Shown: positions 1,633 to 12,627 of the stretch, piece by piece | Layout of the letters: each line of letters begins with the position of its first letter | Position numbering within the stretch: position 1 is the first letter of the stretch | Source of the DNA: Escherichia coli | GTDB taxonomy: Bacteria; Pseudomonadota; Gammaproteobacteria; Enterobacterales; Enterobacteriaceae | Length of the DNA: 64,000 nt | Direction: 5' to 3' (one strand) | Assembly: GCF_044324875.1 (NCBI RefSeq) | Contig: NZ_CP172185.1 | The notes under the pieces: model-generated | What the model saw: only the letters and a program-made list of their open reading frames with translations | The model's database searches: none | Told to the model about the DNA's origin: nothing | Position numbers and translations under genes: made by a program

Positions 1633-2607
1633 ATGCCAGTAATGATTAGCGGCGTGCTGTACGCCCTGTTAGCAGGGTTGATGTGGGGGCTTATTTTTGT
1701 CGGGCCGTTGATCGTGCCGGAATACCCGGCGATGTTGCAGTCTATGGGGCGTTATCTGGCGTTAGGGTTAATTGCGCTGCCCATTGCCTGGCTGGGACGC
1801 GTGCGTCTGCGTCAGTTGGCGCGTCGCGACTGGCTTACCGCCTTGATGCTCACCATGATGGGCAACCTCATCTATTACTTCTGCCTTGCCAGTGCCATTC
1901 AACGTACTGGCGCGCCTGTTTCCACGATGATTATCGGCACCCTGCCGGTGGTGATTCCTGTCCTCGCCAATCTGCTTTATAGCCAGCGTGACGGTAAACT
2001 CGCGTGGGGGAAACTCGCCCCGGCGCTGGTTTGTATTGGCATCGGCCTGGCATGTGTAAATATTGCTGAGTTAGACCACGGACTCCCCGATTTTGACTGG
2101 GCACGTTATACCTCTGGCATCGTGCTGGCGTTAGTTTCCGTGGTCTGCTGGGCGTGGTATGCCTTGCGCAACGCCCGTTGGCTGCGGGAAAACCCAGACA
2201 AACATCCGATGATGTGGGCGACGGCGCAGGCGCTGGTCACGCTGCCGGTTTCGCTCATCGGTTATCTTGTCGCCTGTTACTGGCTGAATACGCAAACGCC
2301 GGACTTCTCCCTACCTTTTGGCCCCCGTCCGCTTGTATTTGTTAGCCTGATGATTGCGATAGCTGTGCTTTGCTCATGGGTCGGCGCACTTTGCTGGAAC
2401 GTCGCCAGCCAGCGATTACCGACCGTGATTCTCGGGCCGCTGATTGTTTTCGAAACGCTGGCAGGTTTGCTGTACACCTTTTTACTCCGCCAGCAAATGC
2501 CGCCGCTGATGACGCTAAGCGGTATCGCGCTGTTAGTGGTTGGCGTGGTCATTGCAGTCAGAGCAAAACCGGAAAAGCCTTTAACTGAATCTGTCTCAGA
2601 AAGTTGA
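1633..2607 (+). CDS. ytfF: DMT/EamA-family inner membrane transporter YtfF
   Basis: 324 aa strongly hydrophobic multi-helix ORF; alternative start at 1642 (MISGVLY) possible. Confidence 0.85.
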   Translation: MPVMISGVLYALLAGLMWGLIFVGPLIVPEYPAMLQSMGRYLALGLIALPIAWLGRVRLRQLARRDWLTALMLTMMGNLIYYFCLASAIQRTGAPVSTMIIGTLPVVIPVLANLLYSQRDGKLAWGKLAPALVCIGIGLACVNIAELDHGLPDFDWARYTSGIVLALVSVVCWAWYALRNARWLRENPDKHPMMWATAQALVTLPVSLIGYLVACYWLNTQTPDFSLPFGPRPLVFVSLMIAIAVLCSWVGALCWNVASQRLPTVILGPLIVFETLAGLLYTFLLRQQMPPLMTLSGIALLVVGVVIAVRAKPEKPLTESVSES

Positions 2608-2665
2608 CACGCTGGCAGTGAGTTAAATAAGCCTCTGCTACGTAAGGGTTATAGCATTTGCCTTA

Positions 2666-2688
2666 AAGATGCATTTAAAATACATCTT
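2666..2688. promoter_or_regulatory. NsrR operator (inverted repeat AAGATGCATTT-A-AAATACATCTT) upstream of ytfE
   Basis: Perfect 11-1-11 inverted repeat seen about 27 bp upstream of the ytfE start codon; matches the known NsrR binding motif; nsrR itself lies at 32551..32976. Confidence 0.8.
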
Positions 2689-2714
2689 ATATTATTAAGA
2701 ATGAGGTATCAGCT

Positions 2715-3377
2715 ATGGCTTATCGCGACCAACCTTTAGGTGAACTGGCGCTCTCTATTCCTCGCGCTTCGGCTCTGTTTCGTAAATATGATATGGATTA
2801 CTGCTGCGGCGGTAAGCAAACGCTGGCGCGTGCGGCGGCACGTAAAGAGCTGGATGTTGACGTCATTGAAGCTGAACTGGCAAAGCTTGCTGAACAACCG
2901 ATTGAGAAAGACTGGCGCAGCGCCCCGCTGGCTGAAATCATCGACCATATCATCGTGCGCTACCACGATCGCCACCGCGAGCAGCTGCCGGAGCTGATCC
3001 TGCAAGCGACTAAAGTCGAGCGCGTTCACGCCGACAAACCGAGCGTGCCAAAAGGGCTGACAAAATACCTGACCATGCTGCATGAAGAGCTTTCCAGCCA
3101 CATGATGAAAGAAGAGCAGATCCTCTTCCCGATGATCAAACAAGGCATGGGCAGCCAGGCGATGGGGCCAATCAGCGTAATGGAAAGCGAGCACGATGAA
3201 GCGGGCGAACTGCTGGAAGTGATCAAACACACTACCAATAACGTCACACCGCCGCCAGAAGCCTGCACCACCTGGAAAGCGATGTATAACGGCATTAATG
3301 AACTGATTGATGACCTGATGGAGCACATCAGCCTGGAAAATAATGTGCTGTTCCCACGCGCGCTGGCGGGTGAGTGA
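2715..3377 (+). CDS. ytfE: Iron-sulfur cluster repair di-iron protein YtfE (RIC)
   Basis: 220 aa [36 protein letters not shown]...; hemerythrin-like repeats. Confidence 0.93.
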
Positions 3378-3384
3378 TTTGTTC

Positions 3385-3418
3385 GATCAACGATCCTGAC
3401 ATGGGCAGGATCGTTGAT
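3385..3418. terminator. Hairpin between convergent ytfE and island gene A (likely bidirectional terminator)
   Basis: Inverted repeat gatcaacgatcctg / caggatcgttgat with a 7-nt loop in the 44-bp gap between two convergent stop codons. Confidence 0.5.
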
Positions 3419-3421
3419 TAT

Positions 3422-4906
3422 TCAGTCATTCAGTGGAAATAATTCATTGTTGTAACTGGTGTACTCACCTTCAACGGTAAGCAAACTGCCGTTTTTATCA
3501 AGATGCGCCGCATCGAGTTGTCGAGTCTCATTACGCCGCTTCGCATCACGTACCAGTCCATCGCCTACGTAATAAATATAGTGGTCATCATGAGCAAAGG
3601 TATCTGATAATTGACCATTGGCGTATTTAAACCACGTCCATTGGCCTTTCAGTTCAAAATGCTCAACCGTGTCTTCATCAATAAAATACGTATAGCGATC
3701 GTCATGTGCTAAATAATTTAATGGTGTGCCATCGGGGCTTTTATACCACTGCCATTGCCCATTAATATCAAAAATAGTCACATCATCGCTCGCAATGAAA
3801 TAAACTTTATCCCCTACAATATTAACACCTTCCTGTAATTCTTGTTGCGGGTCTGGTAAATGAATGACCGACAGCGTTTTTTCGACCGCAGAAACATACT
3901 TCACCAGATAGAGCGAATCTTTATATTGCGCCACATTCTCCGTCAGCGGGCGAAAATATTCCGGATCAACATCAGGAATAGTCGCAACCCGGCAGTCATT
4001 AGCACGCCTGGAAGCATCACGCGTCAACCATGTTACTTTATCCCGCTGCAGGTCAAACGTACTCCGACAATTTTTACCGAACGCATAACGTTTCTCCCCG
4101 TCTTTATCGCGATAAATTAGCAGTGAACCGGCTATCCAGCGCACAATATGAAAGGTATCCGGATCGGCGTTGATGGCATCTCCATTCACAAAGACCTGTG
4201 ATTTAGTCCGCCAGATTGTATCCCAGGGTCCCGGATTACTTTTGCTTTGGCAGCTATTGGGGGAAAATAAAATAATTCGTCGGTCCCAGGATTTAACGCC
4301 AAGAATAGAATACCCTTGCGCACTGCCCAACCAGTGCCCCTGAAAGTAAATATTGTGACGATCTTTCAGCACATCCGCGGAATCACCTGAACCGCCGACT
4401 TGTTGCAACGAATCCATATCGACCTGCTTTTCGTCGCGATTATCATCCGTGCGTTCACCATCAAAATAGAGACTATCTTTATCGGCGGCAAAACGCCCCC
4501 ACGCGCGGAATGTTGCAACATCAACTTTCGGTGTTCCCGGCGGGTTCTGGACTATTTTCCCTGCCCATAAAATATGGCGGCCATCGGTTAACCAGTCGAA
4601 ACGCCAGCCGCCATTTGACCGATAGCCAGAGAAGGGAGCCACCCGCACAAAATCATTATTGATATCATCAGGTGAATCGTATTCACCATCAGTGCCGTTG
4701 GGTACGCGGCGAAGTTGTTTGAACTTTACCTGCGGCAAATGAATATCCGGAAAATCGATACCGTAACCGTCACTATCTTCAACGATATATTTTGTGCCTT
4801 GCCCCCACGGCTGGTAGTAAAACGCAGCATAAGGCACGCCGGAGCAGGCTATCGAAGCGGTTGAAAATAAAGCCAGTGCGAGACAAACGGGTTTAATTGG
4901 CAACAT
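3422..4906 (-). CDS. Secreted/lipoprotein-like protein of unknown function, island paralog A (494 aa), repeated DK..Y(F/Y) and W.W aromatic motifs
   Basis: Long uninterrupted ORF; N-terminal hydrophobic signal (MLPIKPVCLALALFSTASIACSG); shares several conserved blocks with the upstream gene (WLTDGR.ILWAGK, FAADK.S.YFDG.RTDDN, HWLGSA.G, VDPEYF); absent from K-12 at this locus as I recall. Confidence 0.7.
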   Translation of the reverse strand: MLPIKPVCLALALFSTASIACSGVPYAAFYYQPWGQGTKYIVEDSDGYGIDFPDIHLPQVKFKQLRRVPNGTDGEYDSPDDINNDFVRVAPFSGYRSNGGWRFDWLTDGRHILWAGKIVQNPPGTPKVDVATFRAWGRFAADKDSLYFDGERTDDNRDEKQVDMDSLQQVGGSGDSADVLKDRHNIYFQGHWLGSAQGYSILGVKSWDRRIILFSPNSCQSKSNPGPWDTIWRTKSQVFVNGDAINADPDTFHIVRWIAGSLLIYRDKDGEKRYAFGKNCRSTFDLQRDKVTWLTRDASRRANDCRVATIPDVDPEYFRPLTENVAQYKDSLYLVKYVSAVEKTLSVIHLPDPQQELQEGVNIVGDKVYFIASDDVTIFDINGQWQWYKSPDGTPLNYLAHDDRYTYFIDEDTVEHFELKGQWTWFKYANGQLSDTFAHDDHYIYYVGDGLVRDAKRRNETRQLDAAHLDKNGSLLTVEGEYTSYNNELFPLND

Positions 4907-4939
4907 AGCATCATCCTGAAGCTGTTAGCGTGTAAGAGG

Positions 4940-6103
4940 TTATTTAAATAAGGGTTTCAGACCGCTCGGGGGTTGCTTCACCGTAGACCATTCTGCTGAA
5001 ATGGGGTTGTAACGCAGCCATTCAGTTTGCTCGTAGTGTTTTCCGTCGATTGTGGTTAATCCACTAAGTTCGTGACTGTAGAGTTGCCCGTCTGTAGTGA
5101 TATACATGTAGCCAGTTACCATGCTTTCCCTATCTAATAATTCAAAAACATCCTCTGGCTTGGGTGTTATCAGTTCACCTTCACCTAATGCATTGGTTTT
5201 AACCTTATAGAATTGATCTTTGTAATAGCCTACCGACCCGGTAAGTAAGGTAAAATATTCCGGATCAACTCCTTTAAGCGTTTCATAAACACAATCACTG
5301 CCCGCAGGCGTCGCTTCTTGTTTGAGCCTGGACACATTCTTCAAACCGATATTAAATAACGCACAACTGTGACCAATATCTTCCAACGTATAGTCATGCT
5401 CGCCGCTTTTATCGCGATAAACTAACCGTTCGCCAGGCATCCAGCGGATTATCTGAAAGGTTTTGCGATCGGCGGGCAGCGGCTTGCCATTAACAATCAC
5501 CTGCGAATTTGTCATTACAACAAATTGCAGGGATGAATCATGCCGCAGGATTTGAAACCCGTCAGCGCTGCCCAACCAGTGCCCCTTATGCCAAAGACTA
5601 TTTTTATCACGCAGTAAATTCCAGATGTCCGTCTCTTCAAGCGTTGACATATCCACCTGCTTATCACCGCTATTATCATCGGTACGCTGGCCGTCAAAAT
5701 AGATACTGCGTTTATCAGCAGCGAAAGCGCCGAATGCCTTAAAACTGGCGGCATCGACATTAGGTTCACCGGATGGATTTTTCAGGACTTTGCCTGCCCA
5801 AAGGACAGAACGTCCATCGGTGAGCCAGGTATGCTGGCAATCCCCCTCGTCATCACAGTCGAACTTATCGGGATTAAAATCGGAGAGCAGCCGGGTTTCT
5901 TGTTTATTGGCTAAATTGGCAATGCGCCAGAGGCGGGAAAAATTAACGTCTGGTAATTCGGAGAGGATCTCATCTTCTTTTCCCTTCTGTTCGGCAACGT
6001 AAACCGTGCCTTTTTCATGCTGGCGGTAATAAAAATCCGCGCCCCAGGAAGGTGAAATGGAGAGAGGTAATGCGGCGATTAATAACCAACTGCGCTTAAC
6101 CAT
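4940..6103 (-). CDS. Secreted protein of unknown function, island paralog B (387 aa from MVKRSWLLIAALPLSISPSWGA)
   Basis: Track ORF 4940..6331; start placed at the internal Met that begins a Sec-type signal peptide; paralogous to 3422..4906; lies 33 bp upstream of it on the same strand (probable two-gene operon). Confidence 0.65.
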   Translation of the reverse strand: MVKRSWLLIAALPLSISPSWGADFYYRQHEKGTVYVAEQKGKEDEILSELPDVNFSRLWRIANLANKQETRLLSDFNPDKFDCDDEGDCQHTWLTDGRSVLWAGKVLKNPSGEPNVDAASFKAFGAFAADKRSIYFDGQRTDDNSGDKQVDMSTLEETDIWNLLRDKNSLWHKGHWLGSADGFQILRHDSSLQFVVMTNSQVIVNGKPLPADRKTFQIIRWMPGERLVYRDKSGEHDYTLEDIGHSCALFNIGLKNVSRLKQEATPAGSDCVYETLKGVDPEYFTLLTGSVGYYKDQFYKVKTNALGEGELITPKPEDVFELLDRESMVTGYMYITTDGQLYSHELSGLTTIDGKHYEQTEWLRYNPISAEWSTVKQPPSGLKPLFK

Positions 6104-6195
6104 AGTGAACTCTGCAACGAGTGGCAAAGATTCACGGTAAGCTCGCGCCTGAGGGCTGTCTATGATGGTAGATATTTTTAAGAATATATAAAGAC

Positions 6196-6217
6196 AAAGG
6201 CACCCGCAGGTGCCTTT
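6196..6217 (-). terminator. cycA rho-independent terminator
   Basis: Hairpin aaaggcacc-cgc-aggtgccttt immediately downstream of the cycA stop, followed on the minus strand by a T-rich tract. Confidence 0.6.
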
Positions 6218-6236
6218 CAGAGCTATAAACGCAGCA

Positions 6237-7640
6237 TTACTTCGCCATGCGTTTTTTACCAATAAACAACCAGCCCAGCCCCAGAGCGATAAACCACAGC
6301 GGGGTAACCAGCAGCGCCTGGCGGGTATCATCTTCCAGTGTCAGCAGCACGACCACGAACACAAAGAATGCCATACATACCCAGCACATCAGCTTGCCGA
6401 GCGGCATCTTGTAGATCGACTTATCATGCAGGTGTGGACGCTGTTTGCGGTACACCAGGTACGAGCAAAGGATAATCGTCCAGACGAACATAAACAGAAT
6501 CGCGGAAACGGTTGTAATCATCGTGAACGCGCCAATCACGCTGGGATTCACATACAACATCACCACGCCGCCGAGCAGACAGATACAAGAGAAGGTCAGC
6601 CCTTTCGCGGGTACTGCGCGCTTAGAGAGTTTAGCGAACGCTTTCGGTGCCACACCTTCCTGCGCCAGACCAAACAGCATACGGCTGGTAGAGAAGACAC
6701 CGCTGTTAGCGGAAGACGCCGCAGAGGTCAGCACCACAAAGTTGATCACGCTGGCAGCCGCAGGCAAACCTACCAACACAAACAGCTCAACGAACGGGCT
6801 TTTCTCCGGGACTACCGAACTCCACGGCGTCACGGACATAATCACAATCAACGCGAAGACGTAGAACATAATGATACGGATCGGAATGGAGTTAATCGCG
6901 CGTGGCAGTGATTTCTCTGGATCTTTGGTTTCCGCAGCTGTTGTACCTACCAGCTCAATCCCCACGAAAGCGAAAACCGCTATCTGGAATCCGGCAAAGA
7001 AGCCACTTAAACCTTTCGGGAACCAGCCGCCGTCATTCCACAAATGCGCGAATGACGCTTCTACACCGGTCGGTGACTGAAAGTGCATCGCCACCATGAC
7101 CAGGCCGACGACTATCAGCGACACAATGGCGACGATTTTGATCATCGCAAACCAGAACTCCATCTCACCGAACATTTTCACGGTGGCGAGGTTGAGCGTC
7201 AGCAGCAGCACTATCACCGCCAGCGAGGCGACCCAGTCGGAGAGATCGGGGAACCAGAACTGAGCATAAGCCGTGATCGCCACCACGTCTGCCATACCGG
7301 TTACAACCCAGCAGAACCAGTAAGTCCAGCCGGTGAAATATCCTGCCCACGGCCCGAGTAAATCGGAAGCGAAGTCACTAAAAGATTTGTATTCCAGATT
7401 CGAAAGCAGCAATTCCCCCATTGCCCGCATCACGAAAAAGAGCATAAAACCAATGATCATATAAACAAAAATGATCGACGGCCCGGCAAGGCTAATCGTT
7501 TTGCCGGACCCCATAAACAACCCCGTACCAATGGCACCGCCAATGGCAATAAGCTGAATATGTCGGTTTGTGAGATTGCGCCGTAGCGACTGTTCAGCCG
7601 GAGCCTGATCATCGGCAACGACTTTTACCTGATCTACCAT
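6237..7640 (-). CDS. cycA: D-serine/D-alanine/glycine:H+ symporter CycA (APC family)
   Basis: 467 aa ORF, MVDQVKVVADDQAPAEQSLRRNLTNRHIQLIAIGGAIGTGLF...; amino acid permease signature. Confidence 0.95.
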   Translation of the reverse strand: MVDQVKVVADDQAPAEQSLRRNLTNRHIQLIAIGGAIGTGLFMGSGKTISLAGPSIIFVYMIIGFMLFFVMRAMGELLLSNLEYKSFSDFASDLLGPWAGYFTGWTYWFCWVVTGMADVVAITAYAQFWFPDLSDWVASLAVIVLLLTLNLATVKMFGEMEFWFAMIKIVAIVSLIVVGLVMVAMHFQSPTGVEASFAHLWNDGGWFPKGLSGFFAGFQIAVFAFVGIELVGTTAAETKDPEKSLPRAINSIPIRIIMFYVFALIVIMSVTPWSSVVPEKSPFVELFVLVGLPAAASVINFVVLTSAASSANSGVFSTSRMLFGLAQEGVAPKAFAKLSKRAVPAKGLTFSCICLLGGVVMLYVNPSVIGAFTMITTVSAILFMFVWTIILCSYLVYRKQRPHLHDKSIYKMPLGKLMCWVCMAFFVFVVVLLTLEDDTRQALLVTPLWFIALGLGWLFIGKKRMAK

Positions 7641-7948
7641 GTTTTTTTCTTCCTGTACCTGTCTGTGTTGTTCAGGCTCTACGGCCTTTAGTCAGTCTAT
7701 GATACGACGAATCTGTATCGGGACTCATCGATATTAGGTAACAATACGCGGGATGAATACTAAGATTTAGATCTAATGTTAATGTTATGTTTAAAGTGAG
7801 TGTCATATCACGGTGATAACGCGAAACAGCTCACAAAAATACACGCTTACGGGGTCTTTGCAACACAAAATAGCGCCGTTTGGCAAACTGAAGGGTTTAT
7901 TGCTGAATGCCTGCTCCCCTCTGGCTCGAGGGGAACAGAATGCGCTGC

Positions 7949-8569
7949 TTAGAGGATTTCCAGCAGTTCGACTTCAAACACCAGGGTGCTGAACGGAGGG
8001 ATGGACGCGCCTGCGCCACGCTCACCATATGCCAGTTCCTGCGGGATAGTCAGTTCCCATTTAGAACCTACCGGCATCAGAGTCAGCGCTTCAATCCAGC
8101 CTGGGATCACGCCGTTAACCGGGAATTCAGCTGGCTCGCCGCGAGCAACGGAGCTGTCAAACACGGTGCCGTCGATCAGTTTTCCGGTGTAATGAACACG
8201 AACGCGGTCGGTACGTGCCGGAATTGCGCCTTCGCCCTGGTTGATCACGCGGAATTGCAGGCCAGATTCGGTGCTATTCACACCTTCTTTTTTGGCGTTT
8301 TCTTCCAGGTATTTCACACCTTCAGCAGCCATCGCCTGGAAACGCTGACGACGAACGGCATCGGCGCGTTCGTGGATTTCACGCAGCGCGCGGTGCACCA
8401 CATCAACCGGAACAGCCGGATGTTTGCCTTCCAGCGCATCAGCAATGCCTGCAACCAGTGCTTCTGGCAGCAGCCCTTCCAGGCCAGATTCACTCAGTTG
8501 TTGCCCTACCTGCAAACCAATGCCGTAGCTTGCTTGCGCTTCGATGGTGTCAAAAGTTGGGGTGGTCAT
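7949..8569 (-). CDS. fklB: FKBP-type peptidyl-prolyl cis-trans isomerase FklB
   Basis: Track ORF 7949..8728; start moved to [20 protein letters not shown]... giving 206 aa; FKBP domain at C-terminus. Confidence 0.92.
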
Positions 8570-8786
8570 CGTATTTCCTTTCTTAGGGTATAAAGTAGCG
8601 GGCAGCATATCAGCCACACTTCTTTGGGTAAAACTTTGTCGCGGGAATGATGACAAATCCCGGGGAAAAAGAAACAATAGCAATATCCCGTATGAATATA
8701 ATAAAGGCGGGTTTACCACGGACATCATAGCGTTAGCTTATTCATAGGCTATGATTGAGGAACAAGACGCGGAGCAGGAGGAAACC

Positions 8787-9425
8787 ATGCCCGGGCGCTT
8801 TGAACTAAAACCAACCCTGGAGAAAGTCTGGCACGCGCCGGACAATTTTCGCTTCATGGACCCGCTGCCGCCGATGCATCGTCGGGGGATCATTATTGCC
8901 GCCATTGTATTGGTGGTCGGATTTCTGCTTCCATCTGATGATACGCCCAACGCGCCAGTGGTGACGCGTGAAGCGCAGTTAGATATTCAGTCGCAATCAC
9001 AACCGCCGACAGAAGAACAGCTGCGGGCGCAGCTAGTTACGCCACAAAATGATCCTGATCAGGTGGCCCCGGTCGCTCCAGAACCTATACAGGAAGGCCA
9101 GCCAGAAGAGCAGCCGCAAACTACCCAAACGCAACCATTCCAGCCAGATAGCGGAATTGATAATCAATGGCGCTCTTACCGTGTCGAACCCGGTAAAACG
9201 ATGGCGCAGCTGTTCCGCGACCACGGACTGCCCGCTACCGATGTCTATGCAATGGCGCAGGTAGAAGGCGCGGGTAAGCCGCTGAGTAATTTGCAAAACG
9301 GGCAGATGGTGAAAATCCGCCAGAACGCCAGCGGCGTGGTGACGGGCTTAACCATTGATACGGGGAATAATCAACAGGTCCTGTTTACCCGCCAGCCGGA
9401 TGGCAGTTTTATTCGTGCGCGGTAG
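8787..9425 (+). CDS. ytfB: Cell-division OapA/LysM-like protein YtfB
   Basis: Track ORF 8751..9425; start at MPGRFELKP gives 212 aa; single TM segment then Pro/Gln-rich linker and C-terminal OapA-like domain. Confidence 0.85.
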
Positions 9426-9571: not shown

Positions 9572-10768
9572 CTAAATCATTTCGGGGGGTTCCTGCTTCA
9601 ACGAGCGGCCTGACTGCACCATCTCTCCACAGGCAAGAACGGCGTGCCCCGCCGCTAAAATGTTACGAGCGCCATTTACATCGGCGTTCGCTGTATATCC
9701 ACATGCCTGGCATCTGAATTTACTTTGTGACAGGCGATTTTCTTTCGCTGTATGACCACAGCACGCGCAACGCTGGCTTGTGTACGCTGGCGGAACAGCA
9801 AGCACCTGACCGCCACGCCAGAGCTGCTTGTACTCAAGCTGGCGGCGCATTTCATACCAGCCCTGATCCAGTATCGAACGGTTTAAACCTGATTTTGCCC
9901 GGACATTGCGCCCCGGCTGGCTGACCGTACCCGCTGCTGACTTTGACATGTTGCTGACCTTCAAATCCTCAATGACTATCATTGCGTGGTTTTTGCTGAC
10001 GGTCGTTGTGACTTTGTGAAGGTAGTCCCTGCGGATATTTGCGATACAGGAATGCAGTCGCTGTATTTTGCGTTTCTGCTTCTGCCAGTTATTGCTGAAT
10101 TTGACCTTGCGGCTTAACTGTCGCTGAAGTCTCGCCAGCTTCTTCTGGTTTTTCTGAAAACTGTTTACAGGCTCAAAGACTGTGCCATCTGACAGCGTGG
10201 CGAGTTTAGCCACGCCAGCATCCAGCCCGACCATTGATGCTGAAGGGTGAACCGGAGTTGATACTTCATTTTCAGTCTGAATACTGATGTACCACTTACC
10301 GCAGGACTGGCTGACAGTGACATTTTTCACAACACCCGTGACCTGACGGCTATTCCGGTAGCGCATCCAGCCAAGTTTCGGCAGAAAAATACGGCTGTTT
10401 TCCTGATCGAGCTTAACGCCCTGCGGGTAGCGGAATGCATCATTCTGTCCCCGCTTTTTGAATCGGGGAAAAGCAGCCCGCTTCTGGAAGAAGTTTTTGT
10501 AAGCCCGCTCAAGGTCTTTCAGTGACTGTTGCAATGGCTGTGAGGGCGAATCTTTAAGCCATTGCGTTTCAGTGGCGTTTTTCCACTCAACCAGCCAGGA
10601 AGCCATTTTCCCGTAAGGGATGTATTTATTACCGGCCTCATGATTCTCATTCTGACGTGCCAGAGCACGATTGAAAACGAAACGACATGCGCCTGCGAAG
10701 CGCCTCATTTCACGCTCCTGTTGACCACCGGGTCTTAACTGGAATTTAAATGCCTGTAGTCGTTTCAC
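9572..10768 (-). CDS. tnpB: IS200/IS605-family TnpB (OrfB), RuvC-like RNA-guided nuclease family
   Basis: 398 aa; N-terminal [13 protein letters not shown]..., RuvC-I-like IEDLKV, C-terminal zinc finger CACCGH...CQACG and RuvC-III-like DVNGARNI; full length with no internal stops. Confidence 0.9.
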
Positions 10769-10775
10769 AGGCCAA

Positions 10776-11390
10776 ATGATACTTTGGTCTGTGAGAAAAG
10801 AAACCGATATCCGGCGTGGAAGGCATTGTGTTTTCCTGATGCATGTTCACCAGGTCTTTGTCACCAAATACCGACGTCAGATTTTTGACCATGACGCGAC
10901 AGAAAAACTACGCACTTACTTTTCAAATGTATGTGCTGATTTTGAAGCTGAACTGGTTGAAATGGATGGCGAACCAGATCACGTCCATTTGTTAATTAAC
11001 TATCCTCCCAAACTGGCGATATCCAGTCTGGTAAACAGCCTCAAAGGCGTATCGGGTAGGTTACTGCGACGAGATCGACCAGATATTGCAGTCAGGTATT
11101 ACTACAAAGGCGTTTTGTGGAGTCCTGGCTATTTTGCCAGTAGCTGCGGAGGTGCGCCAATATCCGTCATCCGCCAATACATTGAACAACAGCAAACACC
11201 TGATCAGGTGGAAAACCGCGCCTTATATCCCCGCCCTGAAGGACGGGGTTTTACGGCGCACCGGATAAACCAGGCCAAGCGTATGCTGGTTGATCAAATA
11301 ATATCCCCCAAGCGCAGCAATATTAATATTCACCTGCAATGGGTCGATATCTGGCTTAAAAATATTGTGTTTCCTCCCTTCATCCAATAA
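10776..11390 (+). CDS. tnpA: IS200/IS605-family HuH transposase TnpA; ORF reads through the subterminal hairpin, so the functional C-terminus is uncertain
   Basis: HuH motif ([11 protein letters not shown]) and catalytic Tyr region ([22 protein letters not shown]); about 55 extra codons follow and cross the 11229..11248 hairpin. Confidence 0.75.
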
Positions 11391-11832: not shown

Positions 11833-12627
11833 ATGACATTACCAACCACTATTTATTCATTTCCTGCATATTCACCCCGTTTTTCGTCCACCGACAAACC
11901 AGTAAAATTAAAATTTCATCAATACGCACGCGCTACATTACTTTCAAATCGTGGAAGAGATCATAATTGCGATGGCAGACATACTGTTGAGATCCACAAA
12001 CTAGATCTCTCAGACTGGCAAGCATTCAATAAACTAGCGATGGCGTGTAATGCTTACGATGGAATAACAATGAATGGTGATAATTCTTTTGGATGGAACC
12101 ATGAGGCTACATTAGATAATATTCACGCCCAGAAATACAATAAAGCTTACGCGGGTGCGAGGTTAACCGCAGAACTGAAATATTTATTGCAAGATGTCGA
12201 ATCCTTCGAACCCAACAGTAAATACACAATACACGAGGTTGTTTTGGGTCCAGGTTATGGTACTCCAGACTATACCGGCCAAACGATAGGATACGTTGTA
12301 ACCCTTCCTGCCCAAATGCCTAATTGCTGGTCATCTGAACTACCAACAATCGATCTTTATATCGACCAACTTCGCACTGTTACAGGCGTTTCTAATGCCC
12401 TCGGATTCATCATTGCTGCATTGCTAAACGCGTATTCTGATTTACCCCATGATTTGAAAATTGGTCTGCGTTCCTTATCAAGTTCAGCAGCAATCTACTC
12501 GGGTTTGGGTTTCGAGCGAGTGCCGCAGGACCGAGACATAAGGTGCGATCATATGCATCTAACGCCAGCAAACCATCCTGAATTATGGACACAAGAGAAT
12601 GGTGAATGGATCTACTTACGAAACTAA
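11833..12627 (+). CDS. yjfZ: Uncharacterized protein YjfZ
   Basis: 264 aa ORF at the expected syntenic position next to rplI, preceded by a very AT-rich upstream region (11650..11832). Confidence 0.7.
   Translation: MTLPTTIYSFPAYSPRFSSTDKPVKLKFHQYARATLLSNRGRDHNCDGRHTVEIHKLDLSDWQAFNKLAMACNAYDGITMNGDNSFGWNHEATLDNIHAQKYNKAYAGARLTAELKYLLQDVESFEPNSKYTIHEVVLGPGYGTPDYTGQTIGYVVTLPAQMPNCWSSELPTIDLYIDQLRTVTGVSNALGFIIAALLNAYSDLPHDLKIGLRSLSSSAAIYSGLGFERVPQDRDIRCDHMHLTPANHPELWTQENGEWIYLRN

Follow-up and report, generated by a model that had tools for sequence, protein, structure and literature searches.

Members of the DKNYY family (PF13644) are uncharacterised repeat proteins, many of them annotated as lipoproteins, with names that include Tenacibaculum, Leptotrichia, and Parvimonas, and beta-propeller envelope proteins (BamB, TolB-like/DUF5050) can be named beside them among the systems closest to the one described here. 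A conserved N-terminal body that carries a recombining, trans-specific C-terminal module is, in turn, the hallmark of the CdiA-CT, Rhs-CT, and colicin-type mosaics. Here, we analyzed a pair of genes, A and B, that lies between ytfE and cycA in a 64,000-nucleotide (nt) stretch of Escherichia coli DNA (assembly GCF_044324875.1, contig NZ_CP172185.1; hereafter, the window). Our results suggest that both are new members of a known family without assigned function, and the best overall explanation, to which we attach a probability of roughly 0.55, is that they make up an old two-gene envelope recognition or protection module, in which a lipoprotein and a periplasmic partner carry swappable C-termini and whose role is nonmetabolic. 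This work adds three things: the rule by which the two proteins are paired, C-terminal modules that are trans-specific, and, at lptM-cyaY, a further accessory locus with paralogous pairs.

The pair and its flanks are arranged as follows:
2715..3377, plus strand: ytfE, from the open reading frame (ORF) list, the left flank of the pair.
3422..4906, minus strand: gene A, 494 amino acids (aa), a predicted outer membrane lipoprotein with a DKNYY-like beta-repeat core and a C-terminal extension of ~100 aa.
4907..4939, minus strand: the 33-bp B-A spacer, with an AGGA Shine-Dalgarno sequence 8 nt ahead of the A start codon.
4940..6103, minus strand: gene B, 387 aa, a predicted soluble periplasmic paralogue with a DKNYY-like beta-repeat core and a hypervariable C-terminal module of ~85 aa.
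6237..7640, minus strand: cycA, from the ORF list, the right flank of the pair.

The mechanically called ORF of B extends to 6331 and overlaps cycA; we adopted the 1164-nt gene given by the RefSeq annotation of identical DNA, where B is labeled a "DKNYY domain-containing protein". The original prediction, made from the window's letters alone, had placed two same-strand genes 33 bp apart between ytfE and cycA, and the ORFs lie exactly there. It had also read their products as diverged paralogues from an old tandem duplication, which our results support: BLASTP aligned A with B at 35% identity over 380 residues (E 2e-65), far past chance, and all of the shared sequence blocks that it had quoted fall within this alignment.

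Both N-termini look like signal peptides, as had been proposed. What the original prediction missed is that A has a lipobox Cys and B has none, that this pairing recurs elsewhere, and that both proteins end in hypervariable C-terminal modules. By inspection, the A signal peptide ends in ...FSTASIA-C21-SG, which is a canonical lipobox of the form [LVI..][ASTVI..][GAS]-C with Ser at +2. Under the +2 rule, a Ser at this position (and no Asp) predicts Lol export to the outer membrane, so that Lol sorting to the outer membrane is predicted for A. The B signal peptide, MVKRSWLLIAALPLSISPSWG followed by ADFYY, shows on inspection a basic n-region, a hydrophobic core, and small residues at -3 and -1, with a cleavage site of the Sec/signal peptidase I type between ...SPSWG and AD and no lipobox, and its counterparts in all B-type sequences are Cys-free.

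This division of labor in export signals appears to be a rule of the family. We compared pairs from the cycA-ytfE slot (four taxa, with two E. coli alleles), the lptM/dapF-cyaY locus, and one site each in Pseudocitrobacter and Leminorella, and all 12 of 12 pairs, from four chromosomal contexts, combined one signal peptide with a terminal Cys and one that was Cys-free; a solitary intact family gene was found in none of the nine loci examined. In the paired alignment, the Cys at the signal peptide end is invariant (12/12), two further Cys of A are invariant as well, and one Cys of B is nearly so, as would be expected for periplasmic disulfides and hence in keeping with export. By our reading, the lipobox pattern of PROSITE PS51257 fits 8 of the 12 pairs, namely, all 8 of A's clade. 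The Cys box of the lptM-type proteins is a noncanonical AWG-C, and the PSTA-C of Leminorella also misses the strict pattern.

The second locus, between lptM(yifL)/dapF and cyaY, holds paralogous pairs in E. coli, Shigella, Salmonella, and Klebsiella spallanzanii, and was delimited in three of the sequences compared:
L008:3526-6326: lptM-cyaY locus, with products of 492 aa and 441 aa, each a "DKNYY family protein".
L011:1911-7392: lptM-cyaY locus.
L014:2253-7747: lptM-cyaY locus.

The lptM-cyaY pair shares 33-35% identity with A (E 3e-70). Like A/B, it has a two-gene layout, one Cys-type and one Cys-free signal peptide, and an accessory distribution; unlike A/B, it occupies another chromosomal slot, its gene order is reversed (the Cys-type gene comes first), and its Cys box is of the AWG-C kind. 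E. coli carries two genes at this locus, and four-gene arrays are present in K. spallanzanii and a related contig. In our survey sample of 5426 complete E. coli genomes, the lptM-cyaY pair was intact in 1395, many others had divergent alleles, and K-12 retained only a 77-nt trace. Beyond these two slots, the Pseudocitrobacter pair lies near major facilitator superfamily (MFS) and glycoside hydrolase family 28 (GH28) genes, and the Leminorella pair follows hda.

In sliding-window identity comparisons, the core of each protein was conserved and its C-terminus hypervariable. Specifically, residues 394-494 of A are 100% identical to those of the IAI39-type allele (strain 24AR0376) and 40-47% identical to those of Escherichia albertii and Salmonella, while the A core retains 75-97% identity across the same three comparisons. 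The last ~70 residues of B share 30% identity between the two E. coli alleles, and comparisons that involve E. albertii gave the following:
B, the two E. albertii alleles against each other: core 95%, C-terminal 55%.
B, the E. albertii 387-aa type against the E. coli window: core 89%, C-terminal 85%.

The B C-terminal type cuts across Escherichia species, and the C-terminal type of A assorts independently of that of B, in that the window and the sequence L002 have the same A type and different B types. Judged from these alignments, the pattern looks like module exchange or long-lived balanced polymorphism.

Such variation can be accommodated in more than one way. A and B could be two independent envelope proteins, for example, a surface lipoprotein adhesin or antigen and a periplasmic binder, with their pairing a mere legacy of tandem duplication. 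The independent assortment of the C-terminal types fits this idea, as do the fused structure model of 12 paired sequences, in which no clear complex was apparent, and the fact that repeat-type beta folds commonly serve as binding modules; the recurrence of Cys-type/Cys-free pairs in 12 of 12 cases and four contexts, with no solitary gene in nine loci, is nevertheless hard to explain without joint function, and we consider full independence unlikely, if worth keeping in view. A more ambitious and rather improbable proposal is that the DKNYY-like pairs at the cycA-ytfE and lptM-cyaY hotspots represent an unrecognised polymorphic envelope system of Enterobacterales, in which a conserved two-protein scaffold would bear C-terminal recognition modules that can be exchanged and that frequency-dependent selection would maintain as trans-specific alleles, with a role in phage or bacteriocin exclusion, the neutralisation of incoming envelope toxins, or strain (kin) recognition. 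Orphan immunity or exclusion is narrower in scope: A and B would be lipoprotein and periplasmic decoys against phage entry or against incoming envelope-targeting toxins (type VI secretion systems, contact-dependent inhibition, or colicins), and would diversify with the attackers. The predicted periplasmic and outer membrane locations speak for such decoys, as do the accessory status of the genes, their two replacement hotspots, their tandem arrays of 2-4 paralogues, and a C-terminal polymorphism held in common across species; even so, we regard this more specific role as doubtful.

Pfam matched only DKNYY (PF13644), with an independent E-value (i-E) of 6.9e-4 (20.7 bits) for B and of 0.019 (16.0 bits), which is above the usual limit, for A, and the DKNYY profile, run over 46 family members, hit 7 at E<=1e-3 and 25 at E<=0.1 (best, 6.5e-7). 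Repeated units of the DK(N)xY[YF] type were found by regular expression in both proteins (FAADK..[LI]YF in A and B, LLRDKNSLW in B, and two AHDD.Y.Y[FY] in the tail of A, where they read "AHDD[RH]Y.Y[FY]" and make up part of the C-terminal extension), and YRDK... and Y[YQ]KD..Y units could be read by eye from the A/B sequence; in self-searches with a hidden Markov model (HMM) of the unit, internal repeats scored a marginal 1-5 bits. An AlphaFold2 (AF2) model of B, built on a 46-sequence alignment, was a confident all-beta structure of successive hairpins (mean predicted local distance difference test [pLDDT] 84.6; predicted template modeling score [pTM] 0.75), and the modeled fold resembles predicted DKNYY structures. 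Thus, the guess that the two proteins loosely resemble DKNYY repeats is weakly supported by sequence and better supported by predicted fold.

Searched against 1.84 billion cluster representatives, the family profile recovered only 143 proteins at E<=1e-3, of which 37 reached E<=1e-30. Many were fragments, and the weak tail was made up of long proteins with 4-9 matched stretches, which is what repeat proteins would give. All named homologues are from Enterobacterales (Escherichia, Shigella, Salmonella, Klebsiella spallanzanii, Pseudocitrobacter, Atlantibacter, Leminorella, and Budvicia). Foldseek against AFDB50 returned nothing beyond the family itself, and searches of the Protein Data Bank (PDB) found no relative by sequence or fold and no DKNYY structure, the sequence-profile search giving only noise at E about 1. 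Scans of A and B against NCBIfam, PADLOC, and PHROGs gave no matches (PADLOC, 0 families at E<=1), in agreement with the earlier impression that no catalytic motif is evident. The A/B family is, in sum, small and known only from Enterobacterales, with a distant relationship to the uncharacterised DKNYY family that shows in both sequence and fold.

Within E. coli, a query that spanned the flanks matched 5416 of the 5426 genomes, with at least 80% coverage in only 268, and the cassette alone matched 628 of them. The states of the slot were as follows:
Full-length cassette at >=99% identity (the window's allele): 182 genomes.
Full-length cassette at about 91% identity (IAI39 type): about 86 genomes.
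Remnant limited to the first ~430 nt of B: about 360 genomes.
Slot without any cassette sequence: about 88% of genomes.

The intact pair (268/5426) is therefore missing from ~95% of sequenced E. coli. In K-12-type genomes, the pair is absent, the ytfE-cycA gap is 44 bp, consistent with the short gap that the original prediction gave for K-12, and a different terminator hairpin is present. Together, the counts and the absence from K-12 mark the locus as accessory in E. coli, which had also been anticipated. In a third haplotype, the ACN002 type (L003:2125-3725; it includes O26/O111 Shiga toxin-producing E. coli), a ~430-nt B remnant is annotated as a truncated pseudogene, and A and most of B have been replaced by a 355-aa ORF (WP_001345317.1) plus sequence that resembles repetitive extragenic palindromes and bacterial interspersed mosaic elements (REP/BIME). 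This ORF is unrelated to A and had no NCBIfam match and no significant Pfam match (best E 0.19). Given this third haplotype, the slot behaves as a gene replacement hotspot. A further disruption was seen in strain NMBU-W13E19 (L001:2360-3340), where the insertion sequence (IS) IS5 sits inside the A gene of an otherwise 100%-identical cassette and A is annotated as a pseudogene.

The cycA flank varies as well. CycA is 467 aa long and ends in …KKRMAK (stop) in all examined Escherichia genomes with the cassette or a remnant; that of the Salmonella carrier ends in …RKRKLAK (stop) and is of the 467-aa type, and that of a K-12-type empty genome is 470 aa long and ends in …KKRAAELRK (stop). The 3-codon indel at the cycA 3' end (window positions 6237-6262) tracked the haplotype in the six loci compared. 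A right junction inside cycA, considered on the basis of the 467- and 470-aa forms, was ruled out by a 421-kb enterobacterial metagenome scaffold (L013), which has the cassette and a 470-aa CycA ending in …KKRMANLRK (stop), intermediate between KKRMAK and KKRAAELRK. With this ending, the indel falls within a tail that has itself diverged, and the breakpoint comes beyond the stop codon of cycA.

Although the original prediction took the pair for a strain-specific insertion, the same slot is filled, in the same B-then-A order, in E. albertii (about 80% aa identity), in Salmonella enterica (A 77%, B 55% aa identity), and on the L013 scaffold, and E. marmotae and E. fergusonii are among the named sources of B homologues. 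Synonymous divergence (dS) between the window and two of these taxa was as follows:
A: 0.65 against E. albertii, 1.05 against Salmonella.
B: 0.63 against E. albertii, about 2.0 (near saturation) against Salmonella.
cycA: 0.49 against E. albertii, 0.88 against Salmonella.
ytfE: 0.28 against E. albertii, 0.77 against Salmonella.

A is thus slightly above its flanks, and B evolves faster. Further, we found no direct or inverted repeats flanking the cassette, no integrase, tRNA, or IS at its borders (with the ORFs within 3378-6236 inspected for element genes), and, using tblastn with A, no true plasmid or phage copy in plasmid and phage collections. The only matches there were PLSDB records NZ_CP141089.1, NZ_OL790696.1, and CP061233.1 and INPHARED record AFYI01000004.1. 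These records are 1.0-4.9 Mb long or a 98-kb Salmonella contig and are evidently chromosomal sequences filed in the wrong collection.

The nearest IS lies 3.3 kb away, beyond cycA, fklB, and a 224-aa ORF (8751..9425), and is an IS200/IS605 tnpA/tnpB element at 9572-11390:
9572..10768, minus strand: TnpB RNA-guided endonuclease (NF040570, E 3.5e-116).
10776..11390, plus strand: IS200-type TnpA, divergent from TnpB (E 3.4e-42).

The element is followed by an AT-rich stretch (GC content 0.36-0.39 at about 11.25-12 kb), in which a 264-aa ORF (11833..12627) had no NCBIfam match.

Recent horizontal insertion, by which a foreign two-gene islet would have landed in the ytfE-cycA gap of a few E. coli lineages, has to be weighed against these observations. 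In its favor are the base composition, as the cassette has a GC content of 0.46 and a third-position GC content (GC3) of 0.44-0.47 relative to a GC of 0.53-0.54 and a GC3 of 0.62-0.65 in ytfE and cycA (the segment had already been noted as AT-richer than its flanks), its patchy presence in ~5% of complete E. coli genomes, and the related pairs at unrelated sites in Pseudocitrobacter and Leminorella, which imply that the module moved at some time. These are countered by the filled slot in E. albertii, Salmonella, and L013, by dS values similar to or above those of the flanking genes, by borders and collections free of any mobility signature, and by the B remnants in ~360 genomes, which point to decay from an earlier occupied state. 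Recent gain is, unlike the other alternatives, largely excluded, and we leave it only a slim chance. An old locus with repeated loss or replacement fits better: on the most economical reading of the sequence comparisons, the pair has probably resided in the cycA-ytfE slot at least since the Escherichia/Salmonella split, and it has been lost or overwritten in most E. coli, K-12 among them.

A second question is whether A and B still function or are decaying relics on their way out of E. coli. Their absence from 88% of complete genomes, their truncation or replacement in ~360, the IS5 disruption in NMBU-W13E19, and the lack of a clear promoter could all be taken as signs of decay. Both ORFs are, however, intact in 4 genera or species, with nonsynonymous-to-synonymous ratios (dN/dS) of 0.13-0.25 (A, 0.13-0.20), relative to 0.00-0.06 in the flanks; the signal peptides, the lipobox Cys, the further Cys, and an upstream motif are conserved; and the A core is 75-97% identical, Salmonella included. 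By these substitution ratios, A and B are under purifying selection that is looser than that on their housekeeping neighbors, and it is improbable that they are mere relics.

B and then A are transcribed convergently to ytfE, such that the stops of ytfE (3377) and A (3422) face each other, and three noncoding features bracket the pair:
3385..3418, no strand assigned: a hairpin between the convergent ytfE and A stops, likely a bidirectional terminator.
6177..6195, minus strand: an AT-rich, partly palindromic 19-nt motif, GTCTTTATATATTCTTAAA, ~75-90 nt upstream of the B start codon.
6196..6217, minus strand: the cycA intrinsic terminator hairpin, found by terminator scan, with a 9-bp stem and a T-rich tail, just upstream of the B leader.

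Both hairpins, which had been flagged as bounding the segment, fold stably: the first at -21.7 kcal/mol on the plus and -19.5 kcal/mol on the minus strand (z about -5.8 to -5.9; equaled by 0 of 200 shuffles), with a sequence unlike that of the terminator hairpin of the K-12-type empty site, and the second at -16.1 kcal/mol (z -3.5). The motif has 13 invariant positions (G.CTT.ATA.ATTC..A.A) in E. coli (2 alleles), E. albertii, Salmonella, and L013, while the rest of the B leader has diverged around it, and it could be a candidate promoter -10 element or a regulator site. An Rfam scan of 2500-8000 gave no match. The 33-bp gap with its Shine-Dalgarno sequence, the lack of a terminator inside this spacer in the terminator scan, and the hairpins at both ends support an operon.

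Taken together, we propose that B and A would be cotranscribed, either by read-through or from a promoter of their own in the ~90-nt leader that separates B from the cycA terminator. A would then be lipidated, sorted by Lol, and anchored in the outer membrane, and B would be released free into the periplasm. The conserved cores may be nonenzymatic scaffolds that bind one another or some conserved component of the envelope, and the variable C-terminal modules may recognize a strain-variable partner, such as a phage, a bacteriocin, an effector protein, or a host or envelope ligand.

Several observations weigh against this two-protein envelope module. Only the localisation signals, the class of fold, and the way in which the sequences vary speak to its function, and a full-text literature search gave no function for DKNYY ("DKNYY" appeared only in a gene table, with PF13644 unnamed), nor did literature on a ytfE/cycA island or a cyaY/dapF lipoprotein offer anything on function. 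An AF2 chain that fused B, a linker, and A reached a pLDDT of 72.6 and a pTM of 0.56 and, resting on 12 paired sequences and with no predicted aligned error, neither favors nor excludes a complex. The independent assortment of C-terminal types argues against the variable ends of A and B binding each other, and suggests that their contacts lie elsewhere. In the lptM-locus paralogues, the AWG-C box could be cut by signal peptidase I instead, and a sigma-70 scan upstream of B found no convincing promoter. No neighbor gene is conserved across loci and contexts, so that the pair appears self-contained, and the GC content is still low (0.46) even though the pair would have been resident for long, a feature that an old locus leaves unexplained. 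Finally, an ancient split between lipoprotein-type and periplasmic-type proteins was sought with a neighbor-joining tree, which did not cleanly separate Cys-type from Cys-free proteins.

Beyond this locus, low GC and absence from K-12 need not mean recent insertion, as cross-genus synteny here reveals an old, repeatedly lost locus. The cycA-ytfE pair is self-contained, its localisation is clearly predicted, and it comes in natural presence/absence and allelic variants, which makes it a tractable entry to DKNYY proteins in E. coli and Salmonella. Roughly one in four E. coli also has a second, paralogous locus. If the C-terminal modules recognize phages, toxins, or host factors, then they would constitute a new class of polymorphic envelope determinant; if they do not, the pair is one more conserved hypothetical accessory operon.

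Returning to the systems with which we began, the likeness of A/B to the CdiA-CT, Rhs-CT, and colicin-type mosaics lies in the pattern of variation only, given that A and B have no toxin domain, no cognate immunity gene, and only Sec-type signals, with no dedicated secretion system. Relative to the DKNYY family, A and B each give a single weak domain match. We know of no description of DKNYY proteins with an N-terminal region of their own, variable C-termini, or Cys-type/Cys-free pairing, and it is in these traits that the very small Enterobacterales clade stands apart, with its own N-terminal region, its hypervariable C-terminal modules, and the obligate pairing of a Cys-type with a Cys-free protein.

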